Shown: positions 3,136 to 35,376 of the stretch, one piece after another
Numbering within the stretch: position 1 is the first letter of the stretch
Layout of the letters: each line of letters starts with the position of its first letter
Position numbers and translations under genes: made by a program
The notes under the pieces: model-generated
The model's input: the letters and a program-made list of their open reading frames with translations, nothing else
Database searches by the model: none
Told to the model about the DNA's origin: nothing
IMG/VR virus record: IMGVR_UViG_3300030397_000224
Location: 1-35,478 of that record
Reading direction: 5' to 3' (one strand)
Source of the DNA: a virus
Lineage: Duplodnaviria > Caudoviricetes
Length of the DNA stretch: 35,478 nucleotides

Positions 3136-4410
3136 TCAATCCCACGGGTCACCTTCCGTTGCAGTCTGCAACGTATTCTCAATTATTGCCTTCTCCGCGT
3201 CAAACTGTTCCCCTGATCCCGGCTTGATGAGCCGGTGAAGGCCGTATTTTACTGCATCCCAAATGTGGTCATTGGCATCAACAAGTTTGGTGGTGATTTC
3301 TTCCGTGACTCGGTCAACCTTATAACGCCAGTCCCTGGCTTCCTGCGTGGCGTGCTTGCACTCTGGATGAATGACAATCTTTTCAAAGCCGCGAAGATAG
3401 GCAATCGAGTCTTCAACAGAACCTGGCCACTTGTCAGCCGCTTCCATCTTGAAGCCTTTCTTGCGCATGTGACTGATGGTTTCTGGCCGGGCATTGTCGG
3501 CAGAAATCTTCCGATCTCGGCTATCTAGTATCGAATCGAACAAGGCCGGTGTGTCATCCAGATCACACTTGACTTTGTATGCTTCCTTTTCGATGTAAAG
3601 AATGCCCTGGCGCAGTTTCGTTCTGCCGTATATCCAGAACTTGACCAAGGTTGTCGGGTCAACACTGAAGCCCCAATCAGCGCCATAATACGGCCCTTCC
3701 CATTTCGGGTCATCGGGATGAGGCTCAAGAATGTCAAGTTCCCACTTCCCGTTTAGGACTTGCGCATCACTGAACTGTCGCGGCTGGCCTTCCCAAACAT
3801 GCAGGTAGGCATCATAGTCAACCTCTTTCAGATAATCTTTCTCTTCCCGCATTTCCTCGGGAAACATCCCAAGCTCTTCGGCATAGCGCCAATTCGATTC
3901 TATGACTATCCGGTTCCTTGGTGGCCTGATAATCATTCGTTGGTGTGTTGGATCTGTCTCACGGTTCAGATTGTACGTGACCCATATTTCAGAACCCGGT
4001 TTCCTGATCGTCGGCGGCAGAACCCGCCATGATTCTTCTGACATATTTTCCGCTTCTTCACACCAGCAGATCGTGACCCCTTCAAGAGACTTAATATCTT
4101 GTGAATTGTGACGAAGACCAAGAAAGATGAATTCTGATCTGCCTATCTTGATCGAGTCCCGCAGAACTTTAGTACCGCCAACCTGCATCTGCTCTGCCTG
4201 CGTTTCTATCAGTCGGTGAACGGAATCTTTAATTGATCGTTGTAGTTCCCTGGTGCAAAGAATCCGGTGCTTTTCTTCAGCAGCCTTCAGTATCAAGGCC
4301 CGGCAGAAGTTCCAAGACTTGAGAGAGTAACGACCACCAAGGCCGACTTTATACCGCGCCTTTTCTTCCCTTAATGGCGCAAACTTGGCAGGAATTTGAA
4401 CGGTTACCAC
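3136..4410 (-). CDS. terL: Terminase large subunit (PBSX/Terminase_3 family)
   Basis: Walker A-like GGRYSLKS, RELQRSIKDSV, IKSLEG, Walker B WCEEAE; nuclease domain GADWGFSVDPT, ADNARPETI, DANDHIWDAVKY. Confidence 0.95.
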   Translation of the reverse strand: MVTVQIPAKFAPLREEKARYKVGLGGRYSLKSWNFCRALILKAAEEKHRILCTRELQRSIKDSVHRLIETQAEQMQVGGTKVLRDSIKIGRSEFIFLGLRHNSQDIKSLEGVTICWCEEAENMSEESWRVLPPTIRKPGSEIWVTYNLNRETDPTHQRMIIRPPRNRIVIESNWRYAEELGMFPEEMREEKDYLKEVDYDAYLHVWEGQPRQFSDAQVLNGKWELDILEPHPDDPKWEGPYYGADWGFSVDPTTLVKFWIYGRTKLRQGILYIEKEAYKVKCDLDDTPALFDSILDSRDRKISADNARPETISHMRKKGFKMEAADKWPGSVEDSIAYLRGFEKIVIHPECKHATQEARDWRYKVDRVTEEITTKLVDANDHIWDAVKYGLHRLIKPGSGEQFDAEKAIIENTLQTATEGDPWD

Positions 4411-4425
4411 TTGCGAATATTATCA
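4411..4425 (-). promoter_or_regulatory. Putative extended -10 promoter giving leaderless terL mRNA
   Basis: Minus strand reads TGaTAATAT, then 6 nt, then the GTG start at 4410. No Shine-Dalgarno. Confidence 0.45.
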
Positions 4426-4442
4426 CTTCTTCAGGTCATTGC

Positions 4443-4631
4443 TTATGGGGTGTCCGTGTCAGGCTTCACCTTGTGGTATCTCGGTATTTTGCTAATCACC
4501 ACTGCTGTACCTCGCAAAGTCGCTTCCTTCTTTCGTAACAATTCACGTTGTTGTAACTGAGGCGGTGTACATCCGCAGATACCGTAAAAGACCTTGTGCA
4601 GAGGGCACTGGACTATGGTGTAGCAACTCAT
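4443..4631 (-). CDS. Hypothetical Cys-rich protein (62 aa)
   Basis: ORF track; strong GAGGGGGAGGG RBS. Confidence 0.6.
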   Translation of the reverse strand: MSCYTIVQCPLHKVFYGICGCTPPQLQQRELLRKKEATLRGTAVVISKIPRYHKVKPDTDTP

Positions 4632-4671
4632 CCCTCCCCCTCAAGTAAGTGGCTGTGCTGGATATCTCGCA

Positions 4672-5058
4672 TTATTGATCTGCCTCGTTACCCACTGGAA
4701 TTACCAATACCGGAATGCCTTTGGTGAAGGCTCGTTGAATCGTGTCCCATGTGCCGCCTTTCTTGTGGTACAGGTCGTGATGATCAGGTAACGCGCCCAG
4801 TCGGTCTGCTACATCAATCATCTTGCCGTTTCTAATCGGCCCAGCAGCGTTACCCTGCTTCTCCCAGTCTGCGCGGAAACACCTGCCGTCATTGAGGCTG
4901 ATCCCGAATGCCTCTCTAACGCACTTATCAATTCCGGTTTTGCAACACCCGACAATAACTTCGTAGTGGTTTCCGCCTGCTAGCGCTCTTGCCATCCGGC
5001 GCAGCACGGCACTCGACACCTCGTGCTTCCTGCTACCTGAAAACGCTATCTTCTTCAT
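4672..5058 (-). CDS. SLOG superfamily protein (DUF2493/YspA/DprA-like)
   Basis: KIAFSGSR, ADWEKQGNAAGPIRNGKMID and GGTWDTIQRA motifs. Confidence 0.8.
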   Translation of the reverse strand: MKKIAFSGSRKHEVSSAVLRRMARALAGGNHYEVIVGCCKTGIDKCVREAFGISLNDGRCFRADWEKQGNAAGPIRNGKMIDVADRLGALPDHHDLYHKKGGTWDTIQRAFTKGIPVLVIPVGNEADQ

Positions 5059-5366
5059 CCGCTATCTCCGCTCTTATCGTTATCTTGCTCGTATCGCGTC
5101 AGCACAGGAGCCTTTCTGAATCTCAGCAAACCATCAGGCAGAGGATTTTCTTCAACGTGCCTTGCATAATGTGGAGAGCAGTAGTGAGTGTTCTCGGCTA
5201 TAGGGAAAGCATGATCGCGGCATAAGTGCCTGTCGCAAGTTCCGTTCCCAACCGGATAGTCGCAGAGATAATCAGCCACCCAGTTACATTCTCCGCAATG
5301 AGGCCCTAGATCGCCGCACAGAAACATTGTTCCGCCATCATCTGTTTGACGAATATACAAAGCCAT
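5055..5366 (-). CDS. Cys/His-rich zinc-finger hypothetical protein
   Basis: CxxC, LCDYPV, TCDRHLCRDHA, YCSPH. Confidence 0.7.
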   Translation of the reverse strand: MALYIRQTDDGGTMFLCGDLGPHCGECNWVADYLCDYPVGNGTCDRHLCRDHAFPIAENTHYCSPHYARHVEENPLPDGLLRFRKAPVLTRYEQDNDKSGDSG

Positions 5367-5884
5367 TACTTATCCTCTGGTATGGGCATCCAGTGGGTTA
5401 TCCTTGCATGGAAGGTTGCTGCCCATGCGCCCGCAAGAAACTCAAAGACCATCGGGAAGGTTGCTTCGTGATAAGGGTTGAACGCCATGCAGAGATAGAC
5501 TCCTTCTTCATCAGGAAACCTATCATCAGCAGACACCCACGGATTCTCCAACGCTTCTATGCGCTCCTGTAACTCAGCTAGGTTTGTAATGCACTCCCCG
5601 ACTAATTCAACTGCTGAATCAGCGTGACCTGTGCTGATGCTCATGCTGATGAGTTTTTCACATGCCGCGTTCACTGCTACTTCTTCGTCGGCTATGCGCT
5701 CCTGTAGGTGCTGGATGGTTTCCTCTGCCGTAATCAGTTCAGCAAGTAAGACGGTCATTAGATATGACTCGGCATCCCACCCTTTGTGGACAAGGGCCTC
5801 TGTCGCCTTGCCGCAGCGTTCGGAATGTCTGTGCTTCGTCAGGTCAACTGAATTTATCAAATCGTCATGCTCACCCATCATCAC
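5366..5884 (-). CDS. Ead/Ea22-like coiled-coil protein with C-terminal DUF551 domain
   Basis: C-terminal WVSADDRFP...ITHWMPIPE is the DUF551 pattern; LQERI coiled-coil repeats. Confidence 0.7.
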   Translation of the reverse strand: MMMGEHDDLINSVDLTKHRHSERCGKATEALVHKGWDAESYLMTVLLAELITAEETIQHLQERIADEEVAVNAACEKLISMSISTGHADSAVELVGECITNLAELQERIEALENPWVSADDRFPDEEGVYLCMAFNPYHEATFPMVFEFLAGAWAATFHARITHWMPIPEDK

Positions 5885-8150: not shown

Positions 8151-8431
8151 TGGTGCTCCCCGTTCAAGGTGTCGCTTTCGCTCATCATCTTCAAAAGCGC
8201 GTCCGTGACAGTGGTAGCAAGATACTCTGCAATGTTTTTCCTGACGGTTAGCTTTTTGCGCATTTCCTCGCTACAGGAAAGAACTGATCCTGGCTCAAGT
8301 AGTAGACCTAGCGGCTCGCTGGATTCTCTTATCGGCGCGAATGATTCATAGATCAGAGGCTCTGCAACCGGTAGCTTTTGAGTAAACACTCCGTATCGTG
8401 TCGAAACGGTAACCGTTATCTGGTCAGTCAT
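8147..8431 (-). CDS. Hypothetical protein (94 aa)
   Basis: ORF track; RBS and ATGA overlaps. Confidence 0.65.
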   Translation of the reverse strand: MTDQITVTVSTRYGVFTQKLPVAEPLIYESFAPIRESSEPLGLLLEPGSVLSCSEEMRKKLTVRKNIAEYLATTVTDALLKMMSESDTLNGEHQ

Positions 8432-8883
8432 TGGTGTTCTCCCTTGGCAAGCCGGTCATAAAGAACAACATTCACACAGGCGGCTAGGTTCATGCAGCGA
8501 GCAGTGGGGACGTAGACAACGTCACGGCACCATTCTGTGACCCTTGTCCCCAAGGTCGCATCCTCGGCACCGAAAATATAAAAAGCCCTCTCGGGGTGCT
8601 TGTAGTCAACGAGACTCTTCGCCCCCTCGACCAAGTCAACGGCGACAGGTACACAGTCAACAGGAATAACACTTCTCAGATCATCAACCCACAATGTCGG
8701 CATATGTCTATAAGCCTTTTGCGTGTCGGTTGCGCATTTCCCGATCTGCCTCAACTTCTTTGGGCGTGACCCAGCTAAGGCAACCATCGAAACGCCGTAA
8801 CAGCCCCCGGCACGCAACACTGATCCGATATTTACTGGAGTCTTGGGATTGTCAAGTCCCACTGCTGCATATCCCCTCATCAC
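8428..8883 (-). CDS. SpoU/TrmH-family (SPOUT) RNA methyltransferase
   Basis: Motif 1 LDNPKTPVNIGSVLRA, motif 2 YIFGAEDATL, motif 3 VYVPTARCMNLAACVNVVLYDR. Confidence 0.92.
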   Translation of the reverse strand: MMRGYAAVGLDNPKTPVNIGSVLRAGGCYGVSMVALAGSRPKKLRQIGKCATDTQKAYRHMPTLWVDDLRSVIPVDCVPVAVDLVEGAKSLVDYKHPERAFYIFGAEDATLGTRVTEWCRDVVYVPTARCMNLAACVNVVLYDRLAKGEHQ

Positions 8884-13051: not shown

Positions 13052-13473
13052 AATCCTAATGCCTCTCTGACTTGTTGCCGGGCCGCTTCTGCCTTTCGTC
13101 TGGCTTCAGCCGGGTCTCCTGGTATCTTGTTGTTCAATTGATCAACGGTCTTTTTCAATGCTGGTGGTGCTTTCAGAGCCGGGCGCTTCGGCGGTTCTCC
13201 ATGGGGTAAATGAACTGTCTGCCATTCACCCTCAAGGGCATTCCTTAACACAACCTCGCAAGGCCAGCCAATCTCTTCATACCTGACCAGTTTTCCGATG
13301 ATCACGGTGACGGCTCGCTTGGTGGTCTTCACCTTTTTCTTGTGAACCTTCCGCCGCATGACCATGAATTCACCAAAGAGCCTGGCGGGGATCACTTCGG
13401 GAAGTTCTATGCCTGCCTTAGCCAAACCGGACAAACAATCATCAATTTCTTGTGCGGTAACGTCAATGATCAC
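13048..13473 (-). CDS. Protein resembling the C-terminal domain of phage replication initiators
   Basis: LPEVIP..LFGEFMVMRRK..K..T.RA...IIGKL......GW....VL.NAL.GEWQ resembles the C-terminal module of lambdoid O-like initiators. No N-terminal HTH. Confidence 0.55.
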   Translation of the reverse strand: MIIDVTAQEIDDCLSGLAKAGIELPEVIPARLFGEFMVMRRKVHKKKVKTTKRAVTVIIGKLVRYEEIGWPCEVVLRNALEGEWQTVHLPHGEPPKRPALKAPPALKKTVDQLNNKIPGDPAEARRKAEAARQQVREALGL

Positions 13474-13688
13474 GCTTCATTCCTCAAAATTGATATAGCT
13501 ATTGATTTGTAACAAGGAGCTCGCCCGCTCTTTGCAATTTTTTCAGGCAATTCATCAGGTATCCCATTGTAATAGCATCTGGCGTGCCACGTTTGAATGT
13601 AATTCATCACCCGCTGTGTAGTTCGATTGCCATACTTGAATAGCTTTTCTTGCTTCTCTGTTCGCCAACTTTCTTTGATTATCGTCAA
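13470..13688 (-). CDS. Stand-alone DUF3440 (IbrA C-terminus)-like small protein, possibly truncated
   Basis: YIQTWHARCYYNGIPDELP...GRAPCYKSIAISILRN parallels the IbrA C-terminal motif (here VTSWKRFAITVLKND in 14857..16155). Confidence 0.6.
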   Translation of the reverse strand: MTIIKESWRTEKQEKLFKYGNRTTQRVMNYIQTWHARCYYNGIPDELPEKIAKSGRAPCYKSIAISILRNEA

Positions 13689-13989
13689 GCAACCCCCACG
13701 CCTTTCTCACTATGTCTTCTGGAATCTGAAGGGCATACGCCACCGCCGCGTGCCCGATCCAAGCCTTCTGCCCGAGAGAAGAATCTGTTAGCGCATTTTC
13801 ACAACTTATCGGCCAGTCACTAACAACCTTCATCATCCACTTTCCATATAGCTTATGGTTGGAGGTGAAGACAACGGCTTGTTCCAGCGCCTTTTTTTTG
13901 TCCTCAACATCGCCCCACATATTAAAAATGACTTCTTCCCACTGGCAAATCGGATGCCAAACACGCTTAAAGTCAGACTTCTTCTTCAA
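13555..13989 (-). CDS. Phage hypothetical protein of the IbrAB cassette
   Basis: KRVWHP...WEE...MW, WPISCENALT, KAWIGHAA, PEDIVRKAW. Likely TTG start at 13989, overlapping the end of ibrB. Confidence 0.7.
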   Translation of the reverse strand: MKKKSDFKRVWHPICQWEEVIFNMWGDVEDKKKALEQAVVFTSNHKLYGKWMMKVVSDWPISCENALTDSSLGQKAWIGHAAVAYALQIPEDIVRKAWGLLDDNQRKLANREARKAIQVWQSNYTAGDELHSNVARQMLLQWDT

Positions 13990-14860
13990 ATTCTGCTTCC
14001 CACGACGCTGAAAAATCTTCGTTCTCAAACAAGGCTGCAACCCCTGTTATCTGTTTCATTCTTAATAGTTCGTCCATTGACATACCGATGTGTTTGCAAA
14101 TCCACCTGTCTCCTTTGCCCATTTCGACAAGCTCTTGGACGATCACACTCATAAGCTCAACGTTGTGACTCCCCCTAGCGCGGTTATGGCGAATCGTCGA
14201 TGCCATTCGGTCTGACTTGTCTTTGTTCAAAACAACGACAGGGAGAAGGCCATGCTCCCTTTCTCTTATCTCTTTGTTGTTCTTGAGAGTCAAATATCTG
14301 TGAAAACCATCAACAACGATGTATTCGTCGTTTTCCTTGTCGTAAACGGTAACAACCGGCTGCGTGTATCCATCTTCCATGATTGAGGTTTTCAATAATT
14401 CCATTTCCGGTGGGGCCACTTTGTTGGGGTTGTAGTCGTTGGCCACAACCTTTTCTATAGGAACTGCTCTGACGTTATACACGGGAGAAAGCGCGGGGTA
14501 ATGCCCTTCCTCATCGTGGATTTCATGCCCAAGCAATGCAGGCTTGAACACGCACATCAGCACAACATCGGTAAAAGCTTGGAAAGAATGTTTGTCGTGC
14601 TTATCCAAAACATAAACAACACCTTCCGAAACACTGTATTCTTCATCGGTTTCCAAGTTGATTAACTTCCCTGAACCAGAGATGCAGTAACAGGACTCAA
14701 GGTGGGCGTTGTAATGCCACGTGTGTGAATCGCCTGCGAACACCGTTGTTTTTGTTATTGTGTAGCCCATTCCATCGGAATGTCTTATTATTCTGCAACT
14801 GGTAAAGCCGTCTCCTTCGACAACCGGCAGATCGCCCACTTGATACACTTTCATTTTCAA
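13973..14860 (-). CDS. ibrB: Ectoine synthase (EctC)-like cupin fused to IbrB-like ParB/Srx domain
   Basis: aa 1-122: DGMGYT, HYNAHLESCYCISGSG, YVLDKHDKH, CVFKPALLGHEIHDEEGHY (EctC signature). aa 127-295: ANDYNPNKVAPPEM, EDGYTQPVV, VVDGFHR, RMASTIRHNRARG (IbrB). Confidence 0.88.
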   Translation of the reverse strand: MKMKVYQVGDLPVVEGDGFTSCRIIRHSDGMGYTITKTTVFAGDSHTWHYNAHLESCYCISGSGKLINLETDEEYSVSEGVVYVLDKHDKHSFQAFTDVVLMCVFKPALLGHEIHDEEGHYPALSPVYNVRAVPIEKVVANDYNPNKVAPPEMELLKTSIMEDGYTQPVVTVYDKENDEYIVVDGFHRYLTLKNNKEIREREHGLLPVVVLNKDKSDRMASTIRHNRARGSHNVELMSVIVQELVEMGKGDRWICKHIGMSMDELLRMKQITGVAALFENEDFSASWEAEFEEEV

Positions 14861-16155
14861 ACGCTCCTATATTTTTCCTGTATTTGTTTTTGGCGAATTG
14901 CCTGGTCTTTGTTAGGCGCAAGCCCTAAATATTTGCATGTGTGATCGTTTTTCAGCACAGTAATTGCAAATCTCTTCCACGAAGTAACCATGCTTGGATG
15001 CGCCTTCAAAAAGTCTAGGTGGTCTGGCGGCCTCTTAATTATCACTCGGTCAAGGCTGTTGCCGCCGTGAGGGGTTTTCCCGTTCAGGTAAAATCTGACC
15101 TTGTTTTTTCGAAGTTCAGAAATTATTTCTCCTGGCAGTCCGCGCCCCGTTCTTCCCCAAAACTTTATTGATTGAACGAAGCGCTGCTTAAAATTTTCAG
15201 CAGACTCCTTGGGCAAGGTGGACAGCAAAAACTTCACAAAAGATTTCCATGTGTGCCCCTTCGGAAGCTCGAATGAGCGGTAAGTTAATTGCTTTCCGTA
15301 AGTCGCCACAAAGTTTGCGCCGTTAACTCTAGCGCAAAGCCTGGCCCAGCAATCCGGATCAATTATCCGGTACATGGACAAACTTGATTTAGATTCGCTC
15401 ATAAACGGGGAAGCAACGCGCATGTTGCCTACCGGCACGCCCGCCCGGTAAAAAATGTCGTAAAGTTTATTGTAGTCCCACCCAAAAACCCTGTTCGCTA
15501 CCCAAATGTCCTTAGACCCCCAATCGTATATTGGATAGCAGTTATACGTGTGCTCGCCATTTTTCCTTGTCCACTGGCGCCCATCTTTCATTTTTTTGTC
15601 GGGGTTCATTATTGCCCTAAAGCGGTTAAGGCTTTCGCTCGCGCGAATACCAACGCAGTTGGCGCAGGATTTCCCATCTGCATACCAAGAAGCGAACCCG
15701 TCCCAAAATTCAGCGTATCCCATGTTCTCTCTGAAGAAAGGAAACTTGTGGTTGTCAAACGTAACAATGTAATCCTGATCGGGTCTTGGCCTTATCCACC
15801 TTTCTTTGTCTTTCTCTCCCCAGCATTGCCACTCTGTATCATACGCACTAACGGTGCAGGGCAGCGTGATAGGCAAGCAGCACCAATAAACGTCAAGGTG
15901 CTCTCGGTTTGCCTGAATTATTCTGTGCATAAAGTCCAAACTAAAAGAATAGTTTGCTTCGTTGTCCATTATCTGAACACCGATCTTTTTTTTGATGCCG
16001 CGTTTCTTTTTGTGGTCGAGGAAAAGATTCAGCAAAACCCCCGAGTCTTTCCCGCCAGAAAAAGAAACGTACACCTTTTCAAAATTATCGAAAACAAACG
16101 CTATCCTTTCATTCGCTGCGTCGTACACGTTTTTTTCTTGGTACACCCTCTTCAA
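14857..16155 (-). CDS. ibrA: IbrA-like PAPS-reductase-fold protein with DUF3440
   Basis: PP-loop VSFSGGKDSG, VGIRASESLNRFRA, YPIYDW...DIW, YNKLYD, MRVASPF, RVNGANF, SWKRFAITVLKNDHTCK. GGAG RBS plus TTG start. Confidence 0.92.
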   Translation of the reverse strand: MKRVYQEKNVYDAANERIAFVFDNFEKVYVSFSGGKDSGVLLNLFLDHKKKRGIKKKIGVQIMDNEANYSFSLDFMHRIIQANREHLDVYWCCLPITLPCTVSAYDTEWQCWGEKDKERWIRPRPDQDYIVTFDNHKFPFFRENMGYAEFWDGFASWYADGKSCANCVGIRASESLNRFRAIMNPDKKMKDGRQWTRKNGEHTYNCYPIYDWGSKDIWVANRVFGWDYNKLYDIFYRAGVPVGNMRVASPFMSESKSSLSMYRIIDPDCWARLCARVNGANFVATYGKQLTYRSFELPKGHTWKSFVKFLLSTLPKESAENFKQRFVQSIKFWGRTGRGLPGEIISELRKNKVRFYLNGKTPHGGNSLDRVIIKRPPDHLDFLKAHPSMVTSWKRFAITVLKNDHTCKYLGLAPNKDQAIRQKQIQEKYRSV

Positions 16156-18345: not shown

Positions 18346-18374
18346 ATTGTGCCTTCCCCTTGACCATTTGTCAA
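18346..18374 (-). promoter_or_regulatory. Leftward sigma70-type promoter
   Basis: Minus strand TTGACA-17 nt-CACAAT. Confidence 0.75.
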
Positions 18375-18412
18375 ACCTTTTGACACTGTTTCTTTTGTCA
18401 AATTGTTTGCTA
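18369..18412. promoter_or_regulatory. Tandem operators TGTCAAA-N3-TTTGACA (18369-18385) and TGTCAAA-N3-TTTGCTA (18396-18412)
   Basis: Palindromes overlap the -35 of the leftward promoter and the extended -10 of the rightward promoter. Confidence 0.75.
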
Positions 18413-18416
18413 TAAT
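18408..18416 (+). promoter_or_regulatory. Rightward extended -10 promoter (leaderless cro mRNA)
   Basis: TGcTATAAT, 6 nt, then ATG at 18423. Confidence 0.7.
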
Positions 18417-18422
18417 GCCGGG

Positions 18423-18593
18423 ATGAGCATTGATGACGTAATGAAGCACTTTAACAACAAGGTGGCTGAAGTGGCCAAGGCCGTTGGCTGTACACGGCAG
18501 ACGGTCTACAACTGGCAGGAATGGGGAGCCATCCCCGAGCTTCAGCAACTGAAGATTGAAAAGGTCACCGAAGGAAAACTTCAGGCCGACTGA
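18423..18593 (+). CDS. cro: Cro/YdaS-like HTH repressor (56 aa, not in ORF track)
   Basis: MSIDDVMKHFNNKVAEVAKAVGCTRQTVYNWQEWGAIPELQQLKIEKVTEGKLQAD* is a classic Cro-like pattern. Confidence 0.88.
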   Translation: MSIDDVMKHFNNKVAEVAKAVGCTRQTVYNWQEWGAIPELQQLKIEKVTEGKLQAD

Positions 18594-30185: not shown

Positions 30186-30578
30186 ATGATGAACACAGCG
30201 ATTGTCAAAAAGCGCCTTGGCGCATTCATCAGGCGGCATCTGACTATCCACAAGTACAGCAAGACTGCCATCAGGATCAATAGTGTTCGACGGGTCATCC
30301 GAGAACACACCACTGAATCACTTGTGGCCAGAACATGGCAGGCTTTCCGAAACAGAAACCTGTACAACCTCTGCATGACCACTGACCATTGGTTGCCCAA
30401 CAGGCTTTATGAACTGTGGACATGGAAGAACCGGGGATTCAAACCAGCCAAGCACCCGATTGACATGGAGCGAAGGCGACAGATCAACGAGTTTCATCGC
30501 TTTGAAAGAATGAACACACCTGAAGCGGCTGACCACTTCAGGAAGGTTGATGCTGAAATGAGGGCTTGGCCGGATTAA
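30186..30578 (+). CDS. Inverted basic hypothetical protein (moron) inside the structural module
   Basis: AAGGGG RBS before ATG 30186; fills the gap and its stop overlaps the sulfotransferase stop. Confidence 0.6.
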   Translation: MMNTAIVKKRLGAFIRRHLTIHKYSKTAIRINSVRRVIREHTTESLVARTWQAFRNRNLYNLCMTTDHWLPNRLYELWTWKNRGFKPAKHPIDMERRRQINEFHRFERMNTPEAADHFRKVDAEMRAWPD

Positions 30579-31114
30579 GGCGGGGTCTTGTTCGTGTGCG
30601 GGAACGGATCATTGGGAATGTCAGCGCCAAGGAACGGGCAAAGCGTTTCCCATCCATGACCCGACACAATATCCATAATCAGAAACGTTCCTGACGGTGA
30701 GTTACTGAAAGCCTCAACGCATTCAGCGAAGTGTTCCTGATACCTGTCACGGTAAACCTTTTCAGCCTGATCAGCCGTCATGTTGGTACCGTAGAAGTAA
30801 TCGTGGATGGGCACATGCTGTCCTTTCCAATTCTTGGCAACGCTGGCATACCATGAATCAAGGTCACGAACCGTCAGAATGAACTTGGCGCCGGGGAAAG
30901 AGTCGCGCAGAAAAGCCGGGTACATGCACCAAGGGAATCCCCTGAAGCATTCATGACCGCCCACATTGTCAAGCATGCCTTGCTGGTAATCCTCATCAGA
31001 CATACCTTCCTTAAACGTCATGATGCCCTGAACGCATTTTGGATAGCCCAAAATCCGCAGCGCCTCATCAAGTGAGGAAGTGCCGGTTTTGTGTAACCCG
31101 AGTAAAAATATCAT
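30575..31114 (-). CDS. Sulfotransferase family protein (Sulfotransfer_4-like)
   Basis: 5'-PSB loop GLHKTGTSSL..AL..LGY, 3'-PB PGAKFILTVRD..SW..S, GWETLCPFLG...P...FPH.N. Confidence 0.88.
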   Translation of the reverse strand: MIFLLGLHKTGTSSLDEALRILGYPKCVQGIMTFKEGMSDEDYQQGMLDNVGGHECFRGFPWCMYPAFLRDSFPGAKFILTVRDLDSWYASVAKNWKGQHVPIHDYFYGTNMTADQAEKVYRDRYQEHFAECVEAFSNSPSGTFLIMDIVSGHGWETLCPFLGADIPNDPFPHTNKTPP

Positions 31115-32550: not shown

Positions 32551-35376
32551 CTAAAACCATTTTTTCTGAAAGGGCTTGAATGCCTCTGACACTCTCGAAT
32601 CGAATTCCTTCCTGAAGTCTTCCTCTGATTCAACTCGAACGCCCGGGCCGGTCATTTCGCCATACCCTTCCTTTGAAGTCTCAAGATCAAAGCGAACATC
32701 AACACCCCGGCCCAGCACTGTCAGCGCGTCCGAATAGTATTGTAAGGTATCAACGTGAACGTATCTAGGATTCCCAATCAAGTGCTCTTTGTATATTGCA
32801 ATGGTTTCTTCACATAACCGCTTGATTTCGTTGGTAATCCGCTGGCCGTTCTGCTGAAGCATGAACTTCACAAGCAGCATGTTGTCCCGGCAGATAAAGT
32901 GCTTTTGCAATATCCGGTCAGGATGATCCTGAATATCCTTCTCAAGCATTGGCTTGTTACGCCAGAATCTGGACTGACGGGTTTCCTCTGTCAGATATCC
33001 CATGTGCGCAATGTGAACATCCCCAACCACAATGGTTGGCCCTGGCCCTTCGTTCATTTCAAGTTCCGGGTGTTCGTGGATGCGTCCGAAGAACTGCATT
33101 TGCTTTCCTTCATACGGCTTCATCTTAAACAGTCTTACCGGCATGTCAGGCTCTGCCTGCATGTCTACCGCGAAATGATGTTGACGGATTGAATAGCCGT
33201 TATAAATGCTCTGCCTCAAATACTTCTGTAACTGGCTTCTATCCAGAAGTTTTTCGTCGGTATCAATCCACAAACACCAGTCGGTTTTAATGTGGGAGAT
33301 TGAAAGATTGCGGCAGGCATCAAATCCGATGGATAACGGCGATTCACAATCAACGAGTACCGCGCCAAGATCCTTGGCCATGGCTTCAGCCAAGGGAGCC
33401 ATGCCGGTATTTGCTATGACAATCTGGTCAACAACAGGCCGGATTGAACGCAGGCACCATAGAAGCGTTTCTTCGCAACCTGGCCCCGCAATCAATGCCG
33501 CGCCAACCGTTTCAACAGGCCGCTGAAGTTTCAGTTTTCGAGCCATGTCGATTTCAGGAACGGGCACATGGTCAGCCTCATAGATGACATAGTTATGACC
33601 AAGTGGCTCATTCGTGTCCTGGTGTTCCGTTGCTGCGCGTGACCAGTGCGACATTTTCTTTTCAAGAAACATGTCTTCAAGGTCGTGCTTGTCGAATTCC
33701 CATAGGTGCTGCTTGTCCTTGATGGGTTGGCCTCTTTCCCATGGGCCGAAGGGAACCGTGATGATGACATGACCGCCTTTGGCCACATAGTTTTCAATTT
33801 CAGTAGCCAGCTTCCATGGCTCTTCAACATGCTCCAACACTTCAAAGCATGTGGCCACATCATAGTTATAGCCATCTTGAAGCGCGGCAGCGTAATCCTT
33901 GAACTCTTCCGTTGTTTTCAAAAGGATGTTGTCAGGATACTGCGCATATTGGGCAATCGTTTTTTCTGCCTCTTCCAAGGCTTGCGGGTTCACGTCAACG
34001 GCAGTGACCTTAAGATCAGGGAACAGGTTTGAAAGATGAACAGCTTGGTAAGCGCAGCCGCACCCGTAATCAAGCAACTTTTCTGGTGCGCACTCTTCAA
34101 CCCAATGCAGGATTCCAGTAAACCGGGGATCTCGTATTGCATCCTCAAAACTGCCCTCTTGTGCGGGCAGGTTTTCATAGTCAGCTTCGCCAAGCATTCC
34201 AAGCAGTTCCTGAAGTGGCGAATCTTCAGGGCAGACTTCCCGAGCAGCAACCACGTCAGAATGCTGGATGAAATGCCTTGCTAGTCTTTCGGGGTCATCG
34301 TTCAACTGGTCAAACAGGCTGTAAATCTCTTCAGTCCATTCCTGCGCGACAATTTCCCAATCATTATTTTTGCTGGCCCGTTTACCGGCTTCCGATGCGC
34401 GACTGAAAGCAGCGTGATCATCCAGATAGGCACTGACAGCGTTCACGAAGTTCTTCGTGTGGTTCTCGTCATCCTTGATCAACTTCCCGGCTCCGGTCGC
34501 CAGCGTTTCAGGTAACGCGCCAATCCTGGTGGCCACAACCGGAAGCCCTGCCGCCATACACTCCATCAAACTTATGCAGGATATCTCCCTGAAGTCTGCC
34601 GCGACCGGGGAAGGGGTTGGATACACGTAACAACGCGCCTTGGCATACTCTTCATAAAGCTTTTCTTTGGTCAGTGCACCAAGGTATTCCACGTTTTCAG
34701 GAAAAAGGGTTCTGGCAATGTGGTCACATTCAGCATACAAGTCCTGGAAGTGGTCAACCGGGTTTTCATAGGTGGCAATCTTCAGTTTGATATCTGGATG
34801 CCGCTTGAGCAATTCAGGCATGATTTCCTTCAGCAGTCGATCAAGTCCCCGTTCCGGCCTGGCACAATACATGATTGTTTTGGGGTCTCTCTTCGATTGC
34901 TTGAACAGGTTCAGGTCAACGCCGTTCCTTGTGTGCAAAATCGCATCTTCGTGAAGATCAAGAGTTTCCTGATACTGGTCAATATGATATTGGGACAACA
35001 GCATTACGCGGTCAATGTTCCAGAGTACTCCTTTGAATTCCTGCGCGTTCCGGCCAAGGGCAAGGTCATGGCACCACAACAGGTTCAGTTTCGCTGCTGT
35101 GCGGCCTATGAACTTGTACGGGATGCGCTGCACAATGGCCACATCATGCGGGGTGCTTGCTACAAAACCGTCCCACTGATCAAGAGGCATGTAATACACG
35201 CCGTCATATTCGCCTGGCTCGCCGTTCCCGAAGAGGTATACATCATGGCCAAGTGAGGCCAGTTCTCTTGCCATGCACAGCGCAGCCGTTTCAGATCCGC
35301 CAAGGGAAGCTTCTTTCAGGGTGTTGCCGGTGAAGGGCATGCCGGGAACGAACATTGAAATAGTCAGGTTTTTCAT
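32551..35376 (-). CDS. Three-domain GT4 glycosyltransferase - SAM methyltransferase - GT2 glycosyltransferase
   Basis: GT-B: LGGSETA, WCHD, NGVD, RPERGL, EISCISLMECMAAGLPVV..RIGALPE. MTase: LLDYGCG, VTAVDVN, FEVLEHV, GG..IITVP. GT-A: WIDTDE, RLF, GRIHE, IAHMGY, RN..MLEK. Confidence 0.9.
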   Translation of the reverse strand: MKNLTISMFVPGMPFTGNTLKEASLGGSETAALCMARELASLGHDVYLFGNGEPGEYDGVYYMPLDQWDGFVASTPHDVAIVQRIPYKFIGRTAAKLNLLWCHDLALGRNAQEFKGVLWNIDRVMLLSQYHIDQYQETLDLHEDAILHTRNGVDLNLFKQSKRDPKTIMYCARPERGLDRLLKEIMPELLKRHPDIKLKIATYENPVDHFQDLYAECDHIARTLFPENVEYLGALTKEKLYEEYAKARCYVYPTPSPVAADFREISCISLMECMAAGLPVVATRIGALPETLATGAGKLIKDDENHTKNFVNAVSAYLDDHAAFSRASEAGKRASKNNDWEIVAQEWTEEIYSLFDQLNDDPERLARHFIQHSDVVAAREVCPEDSPLQELLGMLGEADYENLPAQEGSFEDAIRDPRFTGILHWVEECAPEKLLDYGCGCAYQAVHLSNLFPDLKVTAVDVNPQALEEAEKTIAQYAQYPDNILLKTTEEFKDYAAALQDGYNYDVATCFEVLEHVEEPWKLATEIENYVAKGGHVIITVPFGPWERGQPIKDKQHLWEFDKHDLEDMFLEKKMSHWSRAATEHQDTNEPLGHNYVIYEADHVPVPEIDMARKLKLQRPVETVGAALIAGPGCEETLLWCLRSIRPVVDQIVIANTGMAPLAEAMAKDLGAVLVDCESPLSIGFDACRNLSISHIKTDWCLWIDTDEKLLDRSQLQKYLRQSIYNGYSIRQHHFAVDMQAEPDMPVRLFKMKPYEGKQMQFFGRIHEHPELEMNEGPGPTIVVGDVHIAHMGYLTEETRQSRFWRNKPMLEKDIQDHPDRILQKHFICRDNMLLVKFMLQQNGQRITNEIKRLCEETIAIYKEHLIGNPRYVHVDTLQYYSDALTVLGRGVDVRFDLETSKEGYGEMTGPGVRVESEEDFRKEFDSRVSEAFKPFQKKWF

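Follow-up and report, generated by a model that had tools for sequence, protein, structure and literature searches.

Why does a bacteriophage carry an ectoine-synthase-like cupin joined to a ParB-like protein and placed beside a PP-loop enzyme? The question is raised by a cassette of four genes in the IMG/VR virus record IMGVR_UViG_3300030397_000224, the whole of which was analyzed here (35,478 bases; hereafter called the window). The record, estimated to be 53% complete, contains terminase, portal, tape measure, tail and lysis genes (Pfam, PHROG). The initial annotation of this DNA described four overlapping, coupled genes at positions 13470..16155, and open reading frame (ORF) and domain searches gave the same picture on the minus strand, including the overlapping starts and stops:

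14857..16155, minus strand: IbrA, 432 amino acids; DUF3440 (189.9 bits) and PAPS_reduct (32.6 bits), both above the Pfam cut-off; PHROG 2302
13973..14860, minus strand: cupin::ParB fusion (whole gene), 295 amino acids
14489..14860, minus strand: EctC-like cupin, N-terminal part of the fusion; Pfam Ectoine_synth, 134.4 bits, residues 14-123
13973..14488, minus strand: IbrB, C-terminal part of the fusion; PHROG 2159 (E 7.5e-81) and Pfam ParB_N (E 1.2e-5)
13555..13989, minus strand: g3, Trp-rich and all-helical, 144 amino acids, no known family
13470..13688, minus strand: g4, free copy of the DUF3440 C-terminal subdomain, 72 amino acids, with its start inside g3

The EctC::IbrB fusion is real, common in uncultured phages and already named in databases. 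The cupin-ParB junction was bridged without joints or indels by contigs of three runs from one study, possibly the source of this DNA, and these contigs differ from the window by a single substitution (IbrA codon 133). In addition, coverage of the fusion is 92-100% in every one of the 120 best-listed homologues, out of 7,999 scored. Together, the bridging contigs and the full-length homologues rule out an assembly chimera or a singleton, the two dangers that the initial annotation had itself foreseen. A search of 50,697 phage records with the fusion protein gave 230 matches, four of which cover at least 80% of it: Nebkiss, Gaia (twice) and XCL1123, the last in two pieces. The fusion is not undescribed, as had been supposed, since Gaia gp104 already bears the name "ectoine synthase/ParB multidomain protein" in GenBank.

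In order to define the distribution of the cassette, loci were collected in scans with four kinds of query (the fusion, g3, the cupin by itself and IbrA by itself); the sample consists of the best 80 loci of each scan, is biased to close relatives and contains repeated contigs. The 453 loci with a full IbrA formed 160 clusters at 90% identity. The cupin was present in 94 of the 97 clusters of the window's IbrA clade (two of the others are cut by contig ends and one is a true loss) and in 0/63 clusters outside it, where g3 occurred in 2/63. In a FastTree tree of 111 IbrAs, all 55 cupin-linked rows fell on one side of a branch (Shimodaira-Hasegawa (SH) support 100), and cupin-linked IbrAs share 63-72% identity within the clade and 33-46% with cupin-less IbrAs. 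IbrA, the cupin, IbrB, g3 and g4 were all found in 53 of the 55 clade clusters with room on both sides; 27 of these complete clusters carry the fusion and 26 the split form (the g4 of L375 was counted by hand). Fused and split forms replace one another at least five times on the IbrA tree, with one "split" row merely cut by a contig end, and the gene order is permuted in several loci. A cupin scan independent of IbrA gave no complete locus without IbrA. As the initial annotation had stated for the window, homologues of EctA and EctB were absent, both there and from 383 cupin loci (31 queries; flanks of up to 4-6 kb, often shorter, in a record 53% complete). The confinement of the cupin to one IbrA clade, the repeated fusion and fission and the lack of ectAB indicate that it belongs to the IbrA cassette and is not a lone osmolyte gene. 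Only 3 of the best 80 loci of the genome scan contained the cupin, and the unit is therefore mostly viral.

Several variants were recorded among the collected loci. Natural IbrA::IbrB fusions occur in other IbrA clades. GIY-YIG-type genes lie inside the cassette in three lineages (L003:7827-8201, L375:2532-2852, L081:4510-5262), and the split cupins of L066:6001-6468, L067, L074 and L082 bear a C-terminal extension of 30-40 residues. In two cupin-less loci g3 accompanies a classic IbrA, in the orders IbrB, g3, IbrA (Pseudomonas phage Amjad_SA, L316, positions 3370-5576) and IbrA, IbrB, g3, g4 (L236). Cupin-less IbrAB genes are preceded by an SNF2-like gene in L105:3424-4680 and 39 other loci, and in Bacteroidota by a GNAT-like gene in L136:4261-4704 and 16 other loci.

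The next question concerns the chemistry of the cupin, which scores 131.7 bits against the NCBIfam ectoine synthase model, above the cut-off of 128. We compared 66 phage representatives with 47 operon-type EctCs, whose fetched flank holds an ectB-like gene, and with 10 solitary EctCs that lack one there; two or three of the latter may be operon genes with ectB beyond the flank. Residues are numbered as in P. lautus EctC, the window cupin was aligned to 5BXX and 5ONN, and residue roles were taken from PMC6344544. The iron ligands E57, Y84 and H92, correctly recognized in the window by the initial annotation, are kept there and in 66/66 phage representatives, and S23, R25, T40, Y52 and H55 are kept in 66/66; in EctC these residues bind iron and the free amino acid (PMC6344544). 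Among the substrate contacts, Ser23, Arg25, Thr40, Tyr52 and Phe106 are kept, and position 38 is mixed (T in 38, H in 20, M in 5, C in 2 and N in 1 of 66).

The phage cupins depart from EctC at a few positions. The absence of the usual Trp, noted earlier as Phe in the window, is a family feature: Trp21, present in 46/47 operon-type EctCs, occurs in 0/66 phage cupins (Phe in 38, Gly in 25), and there is no Trp upstream of position 21 within the stretch examined. Trp21 is described as conserved in 437 operon and 145 orphan EctCs, and a W21A EctC retains 9.7% activity (PMC6344544). Position 59 is Cys in 66/66 phage cupins, 0/47 operon-type and 6/10 solitary EctCs, and position 94 is Phe in 65/66 phage cupins. 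In the window, Trp21 is F, N/H38 is T and V59 is C. The phage cupins form their own group on a tree (SH 99, few columns). The missing "SFH" His, earlier read as a hint of a different substrate, is not a mark of the family and does not serve as such a hint: His is found in 20/66 phage cupins, and P. lautus EctC has Asn at this position. The kept iron, carboxylate and amine contacts and the replacement of Trp21 thus suggest that the pocket continues to suit a free, carboxylate-bearing amino acid but has changed at the residue responsible for placing the substrate carbon chain. EctC also cyclises glutamine to ADPC with very low efficiency, and the role of solitary EctCs is given as unresolved (PMC5924519); in view of this side reaction ectAB need not be present, and glutamine as substrate of the cupin is a testable idea, not a result.

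The same search material included bacterial-type EctCs fused to formyltransferase, PhyH/EctD or arylmalonate-decarboxylase domains and tandem double EctCs (P0260, P0304, P0305, P0380, P0382, P0243). A canonical ectB-ectC pair is held by L317 (MT835761.1), which is filed as a faecal phage and looks like bacterial DNA.

A link between the cupin product and IbrA is provided by EctD-like genes. In locus L301:4072-6506 (= L534), IbrA is followed by such a gene and then by the fusion, in which a methyltransferase-like insert (weak matches, E 0.015-0.03) separates the cupin from ParB. A scan with the L301 EctD-like gene gave 14 pattern matches, of which four viral contigs were confirmed, and a second EctD scan gave no further contigs. 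The EctD-like gene stands directly behind a clade IbrA in 4/4 (L301:4072-6506, L535:4998-6394, L536:4991-5965, L537:5073-5817); contig L537 ends inside this gene and therefore shows no cupin. The methyltransferase-like gene is free-standing in L535, and two of the four EctD-bearing loci have such a neighbour or insert. When compared with the 17-residue EctD signature (PMC5924519), the phage proteins carry most of it: they keep the core WHSDFETWH..DGMP, and the first Phe and the Glu vary.

IbrA itself changes with EctD. Tyr147 and Trp151 are present in 181 of 193 distinct clade IbrAs, Val or Phe with Trp in four, and four were not parsed; Asp147 and Tyr151 (Y147D, W151Y) occur in 4/193, exactly the EctD-bearing ones, and in 0/185 other parsed sequences. 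The four proteins sit on two separate branches. This coincidence ties IbrA to the ectoine-like molecule, and the simplest reading is that IbrA binds the product of the cupin and adapts when that product is hydroxylated. Both the position of EctD directly behind IbrA and the co-variation of IbrA are new here.

Among PP-loop enzymes, IbrA (motif SGGKDS) belongs to the PAPS-reductase / FAD-synthase / CysD branch, and it carries DUF3440 at its C-terminus. Enzymes of this branch form adenylates. The PP-loop motif is essentially invariant (one S is near-invariant), and C93 and C407 are each kept in 89/90 IbrA rows. The IbrA model (predicted local distance difference test score (pLDDT) 86.7) is closest to the PAPS domain of FAD synthase (Z 15.8; root-mean-square deviation 3.3, 170 aligned), with which Foldseek agrees, followed by APR-B (APS reductase B) and CysD (both Z 15.0), TilS-type proteins (12.1) and GMP synthase (10.5). 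IbrA does not reach the family score of CysH (TIGR00434, 16.7 bits vs a cut-off of 165.1). PADLOC gave weak matches over short stretches to DndC and BrxP (E 2.5e-4 and 9.4e-4; range 2.5e-4 to 2.5e-3); the fold lists held no DndC, SspD or TdpC structure, which excludes nothing.

The IbrB part combines a ParB/Srx-type domain (NDYNPN, DGFHR) with a C-terminal helical part that is likely a helix-turn-helix. Its ParB_N score (25.7 bits) is just below the Pfam cut-off of 26.3; it is 56-64% identical to annotated IbrB, and matching IbrBs are annotated in Streptococcus and Flavobacterium phages. It resembles the ParB domains of DNA methyltransferases (PHROG, PADLOC) and, weakly, the small-molecule kinase SbnI (E 0.0014). 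Some long IbrB homologues (P0397-P0411, P0417-P0420) have intein-like inserts near the ParB motif, many with a LAGLIDADG-type Pfam match (PF03161), and three intein-bearing IbrB proteins are also fused to g3.

Of the two small genes, g3 has an uncertain start (TTG at 13989; databases call a 121-amino-acid form), and 186 homologues were found among 199 candidates. Its all-helical model (pLDDT 89) had no match by Foldseek, Atlas or VIA-align (best Z 4.6; none with Z of at least 5 among 48,161 chains), which does not imply a new fold. g3 is naturally fused to g4 in three loci (L047, L087, L416) and to a GNAT acetyltransferase in a single protein (P0225) among the 120 homologues listed; this GNAT is weakly similar (pairwise E 2e-4) to the GNAT-like gene before cupin-less IbrAB in Bacteroidota. 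The initial annotation's reading of g4 as a free DUF3440-like mini protein is borne out by its homologues, which match DUF3440 positions 134-179; the window copy has no Pfam match. g4 may derive from the end of a second IbrA such as those beside g3 in cupin-less loci.

The start codon lies at one site inside g3 in 113/116 g4 homologues, and D/N/Y/H codons at this site end in T in 111/111 cases vs 323/637 elsewhere (the rows are not independent). A programmed frameshift joining g3 and g4, as the long overlap and the three fusions might suggest, was rejected; given the conserved embedded start codon and the codon bias, an own start is simpler. A clamp-binding-like C-terminal peptide was present in 30/49 g4 representatives, vs 11/899 background ORF ends and 0.9 in shuffles, as judged by a consensus pattern that was tuned after these g4 sequences had been viewed. 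In L375:4074-5336, g4 shares its reading frame with a sliding-clamp domain (PHROG 947, E 1e-34). This fusion and the clamp-binding-like tail make a link of the cassette to replicating DNA plausible. A clamp gene stands directly before IbrA in L086 and about 3-4 kb away in a large related phage group. In the window, g4 stops after 72 codons at the next gene, about 30 amino acids short, which is the sole such case among 159 distinct homologues, and the usual embedded ATG reads ATA; this copy is possibly decaying.

We propose, as a tentative answer that falls short of being probable, that the cupin makes a free ectoine-like cyclic amidine, which IbrA adenylates and transfers to DNA at the replication fork. 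The proposal builds on the observed gene linkage, folds, kept and changed residues, the EctD-like and methyltransferase-like additions and the IbrA changes that accompany EctD. It comprises the following steps: (i) the cupin would form a ring from a free N-acyl amino acid, either N-acetyl-diaminobutyrate of the host or glutamine, as in the EctC side reaction; (ii) the optional EctD-like and methyltransferase-like enzymes would tailor the amidine; (iii) IbrA would use ATP to activate the amidine and pass it on to DNA or to a nucleotide bound to DNA; and (iv) the enzyme would be guided to replicating DNA by IbrB and g4, via the sliding clamp. The purpose would be protection from host defence. 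The intact PP-loop of IbrA, the adenylyltransferases as its closest folds and the action of DndC and SspD, of the same fold, on DNA speak for this scheme. The initial annotation had an amine or amino-acid group attached to DNA or a nucleotide and then cyclised, with no osmolyte made. The place of the cupin in the cassette stands; the order of steps probably does not, because the kept carboxylate and amine contacts and the EctD-like hydroxylase in four contigs make it more likely that the ring is made first, on a free small molecule, and that it resembles ectoine closely enough not to be a very different product. The wider claim that phages have turned the ectoine pathway into genome modification, with an EctC variant making ectoine or its analogue derived from glutamine, EctD-like and methyltransferase-like enzymes diversifying this product and a clamp-docked IbrAB complex attaching it to new DNA, is more doubtful still.

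Several findings weigh against DNA modification by an ectoine-like product. Most IbrAB pairs have no cupin (0/63 clusters), so the core reaction needs none, and g3 and g4 also occur without it beside other IbrAs (L236; g3 only in phage Amjad_SA). Within the clade, 1 of 55 uncut clusters has neither g3 nor g4, and in one member (L344:3868-4617) a 1-Cys peroxiredoxin occupies the place of the cupin between IbrA and IbrB. The nearest solved folds of IbrA adenylate phosphate or sulfate, not carboxylate. The EctD link consists of four contigs on two branches, which a shared recombined segment could explain, and the phage EctD-like protein scores 172.8 bits against TIGR02408 (cut-off 336.5), although a chromosomal copy from an ect cluster is also below the cut-off (264.1). 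As to the clamp, besides the tuning of the motif noted above, the fusion is one case, with an ATG belonging to the clamp domain itself, and may stem from the loss of a stop codon, and the g4 of the window lacks the tail. As a side observation, the peroxiredoxin is a single case, and IbrB belongs to the ParB/sulfiredoxin fold.

Among the alternatives, the one that survives best is that the same enzymes release a free small molecule or nucleotide conjugate (amidine-AMP, amidine-nucleotide) as a signal, inhibitor or anti-defence agent and leave DNA unmodified. We regard this as unlikely. All of the clues to the chemistry (the EctC pocket and the EctD-like and methyltransferase-like additions) concern small molecules, the nearest folds of IbrA make free adenylates, and IbrB is weakly similar to SbnI; in contrast, the clamp-binding-like tail of g4, the clamp fusion and the likeness of IbrB to ParB domains of DNA methyltransferases suggest work on DNA.

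Somewhat less likely is the use of the ectoine-like molecule as a ligand that switches IbrAB on or off as a regulator of phage transcription or replication, with no transfer. IbrA and IbrB of E. coli are reported to activate the eib genes of prophages (Sandt 2002, as cited in PMC6008420), and the IbrA changes that accompany EctD fit ligand recognition equally well. However, a full PP-loop and two conserved cysteines in IbrA argue against a mere switch, for which a three-step tailoring set would also be costly.

It is improbable that IbrA inserts sulfur in the manner of DndC, SspD or TdpC (as a phosphorothioate or thio-base), with the cupin and its partners supplying iron or redox power. The weak PADLOC matches, the two conserved cysteines and the single replacement of the cupin by a peroxiredoxin would fit, and phosphorothioation reportedly needs no gene besides tdpC (PMC12914056). 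Neither a DndD/SspC/BrxC-type P-loop nucleoside triphosphatase (NTPase) nor a cysteine desulfurase was found within the cassettes or in the genes that recur beside them in the cupin clade, although host IscS could substitute for the latter, and sulfur insertion leaves the EctD link and its IbrA changes unexplained.

Equally improbable is the cupin as a salt-stress helper that makes ectoine or hydroxyectoine independently of IbrA. It passes the NCBIfam cut-off and is joined by EctD-like genes, the solitary EctC of P. syringae is reported to work (PMC5924519), and viral ectoine synthase has been read as osmoprotective (PMC12647753, PMC13079714). This is countered by the absence of Trp21 from 66/66 phage cupins (with the low activity of W21A reported in PMC6344544), the lack of ectA and ectB in 383 loci and of any complete cupin locus without IbrA in the independent scan, the fusion to IbrB, and the IbrA residues that change with EctD. 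Finally, modification of a protein (e.g. the clamp, another replisome protein or a host protein) with amidine or AMP is just as improbable. The g4 clamp link, which concerns the replisome no less than DNA, and the single g3-GNAT fusion would fit; against it, there is no positive sign, and characterised relatives of the same fold in conflict systems act on DNA.

The surroundings of the cassette in the window are those of small early-type genes, and it lies just before a gene weakly resembling replication initiator O (PHROG). A search of Rfam gave no match, and promoter and terminator counts were at chance level. A sigma-70-like site (10/12) at 18346-18593 is directed toward the genes that run leftward and lies back to back with a small ORF that is Cro-like by eye only. 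Amid the head-tail genes are a 941-amino-acid glycosyltransferase-methyltransferase-glycosyltransferase protein (32551-35376) and a sulfotransferase (30575-31114), which possibly modify the virion surface. A SpoU-family RNA methyltransferase gene (8428-8883) adjoins the small terminase.

Genes for IbrA and IbrB, for which no reaction is known, are widespread among phages and bacteria, E. coli K-12 among them. Their ectoine-type clade offers a candidate substrate class, a residue pair in IbrA and cultured phages (Gaia, Nebkiss, XCL1123), which makes the question of IbrAB function directly testable. If an ectoine-derived DNA modification were confirmed, DNA modifications would gain a new class, and the IbrAB/YbdNM family, to which the E. 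coli K-12 genes belong, would have its first chemistry. Furthermore, virome counts of viral "ectoine synthase" and "PAPS reductase" genes as salt-stress or sulfur-cycle helpers may include parts of this cassette: the PAPS reductase of XCL1123 and Gaia, read as a sulfur-metabolism gene (PMC10232697, PMC6145125), is this IbrA. For phage PAPS reductases in general, roles in DNA modification or anti-defence have been suggested (PMC11437467, PMC13551039). We found no paper on this cassette or on an IbrAB reaction, and no functional study of the Gaia, Nebkiss or XCL1123 cassette, in a literature search that mostly left out subscription journals; YbdNM or IbrAB are merely mentioned in PMC9068703, PMC4490671 and PMC6008420, and passages of a CRISPR interference preprint on Nebkiss name entry factors only.

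The closest known counterparts are in Mycobacterium phages Gaia (gp103-107) and Nebkiss, which have the same genes in the same order; the Gaia fusion is 65-69% identical to that of the window, and Gaia differs in an extra inserted gene (annotated as GIY-YIG-like in Nebkiss) and an intact g4. In Pseudoalteromonas phage XCL1123 the cupin and ParB are two genes. In GenBank these relatives appear under the annotations "PAPS reductase" and "ectoine synthase/ParB multidomain protein". A PAPS-reductase domain with DUF3440, followed by a ParB-like protein, likewise makes up IbrA/IbrB of E. coli ECOR-9 and YbdN/YbdM of K-12. To these pairs the cupin clade adds the cupin, g3 and g4, whereas cupin-less pairs often stand with an SNF2-like (40 loci) or GNAT-like (17 loci) gene.

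The phage cupin has the fold, iron ligands and most substrate contacts in common with EctC (P. lautus 5ONM-5ONO, S. alaskensis 5BXX) and with solitary EctCs, but it forms its own clade, lacks Trp21, is marked by Cys59 and Phe94, and is not accompanied by ectAB. DndC and SspD, which act in DNA phosphorothioation (PMC10853773, PMC12914056), as well as BrxP and TdpC, are likewise PP-loop enzymes of the PAPS-reductase fold with conserved cysteines, and DndB is their ParB-family neighbour. In contrast to these Dnd-type systems, to which its sequence likeness is weak, the cassette has no DndD/SspC-type NTPase or desulfurase, and DUF3440, the cupin, g3 and g4 have no counterpart there. Judged by its sequences, the cassette falls within the IbrA/IbrB family; it is no canonical EctC, CysH or Dnd system.

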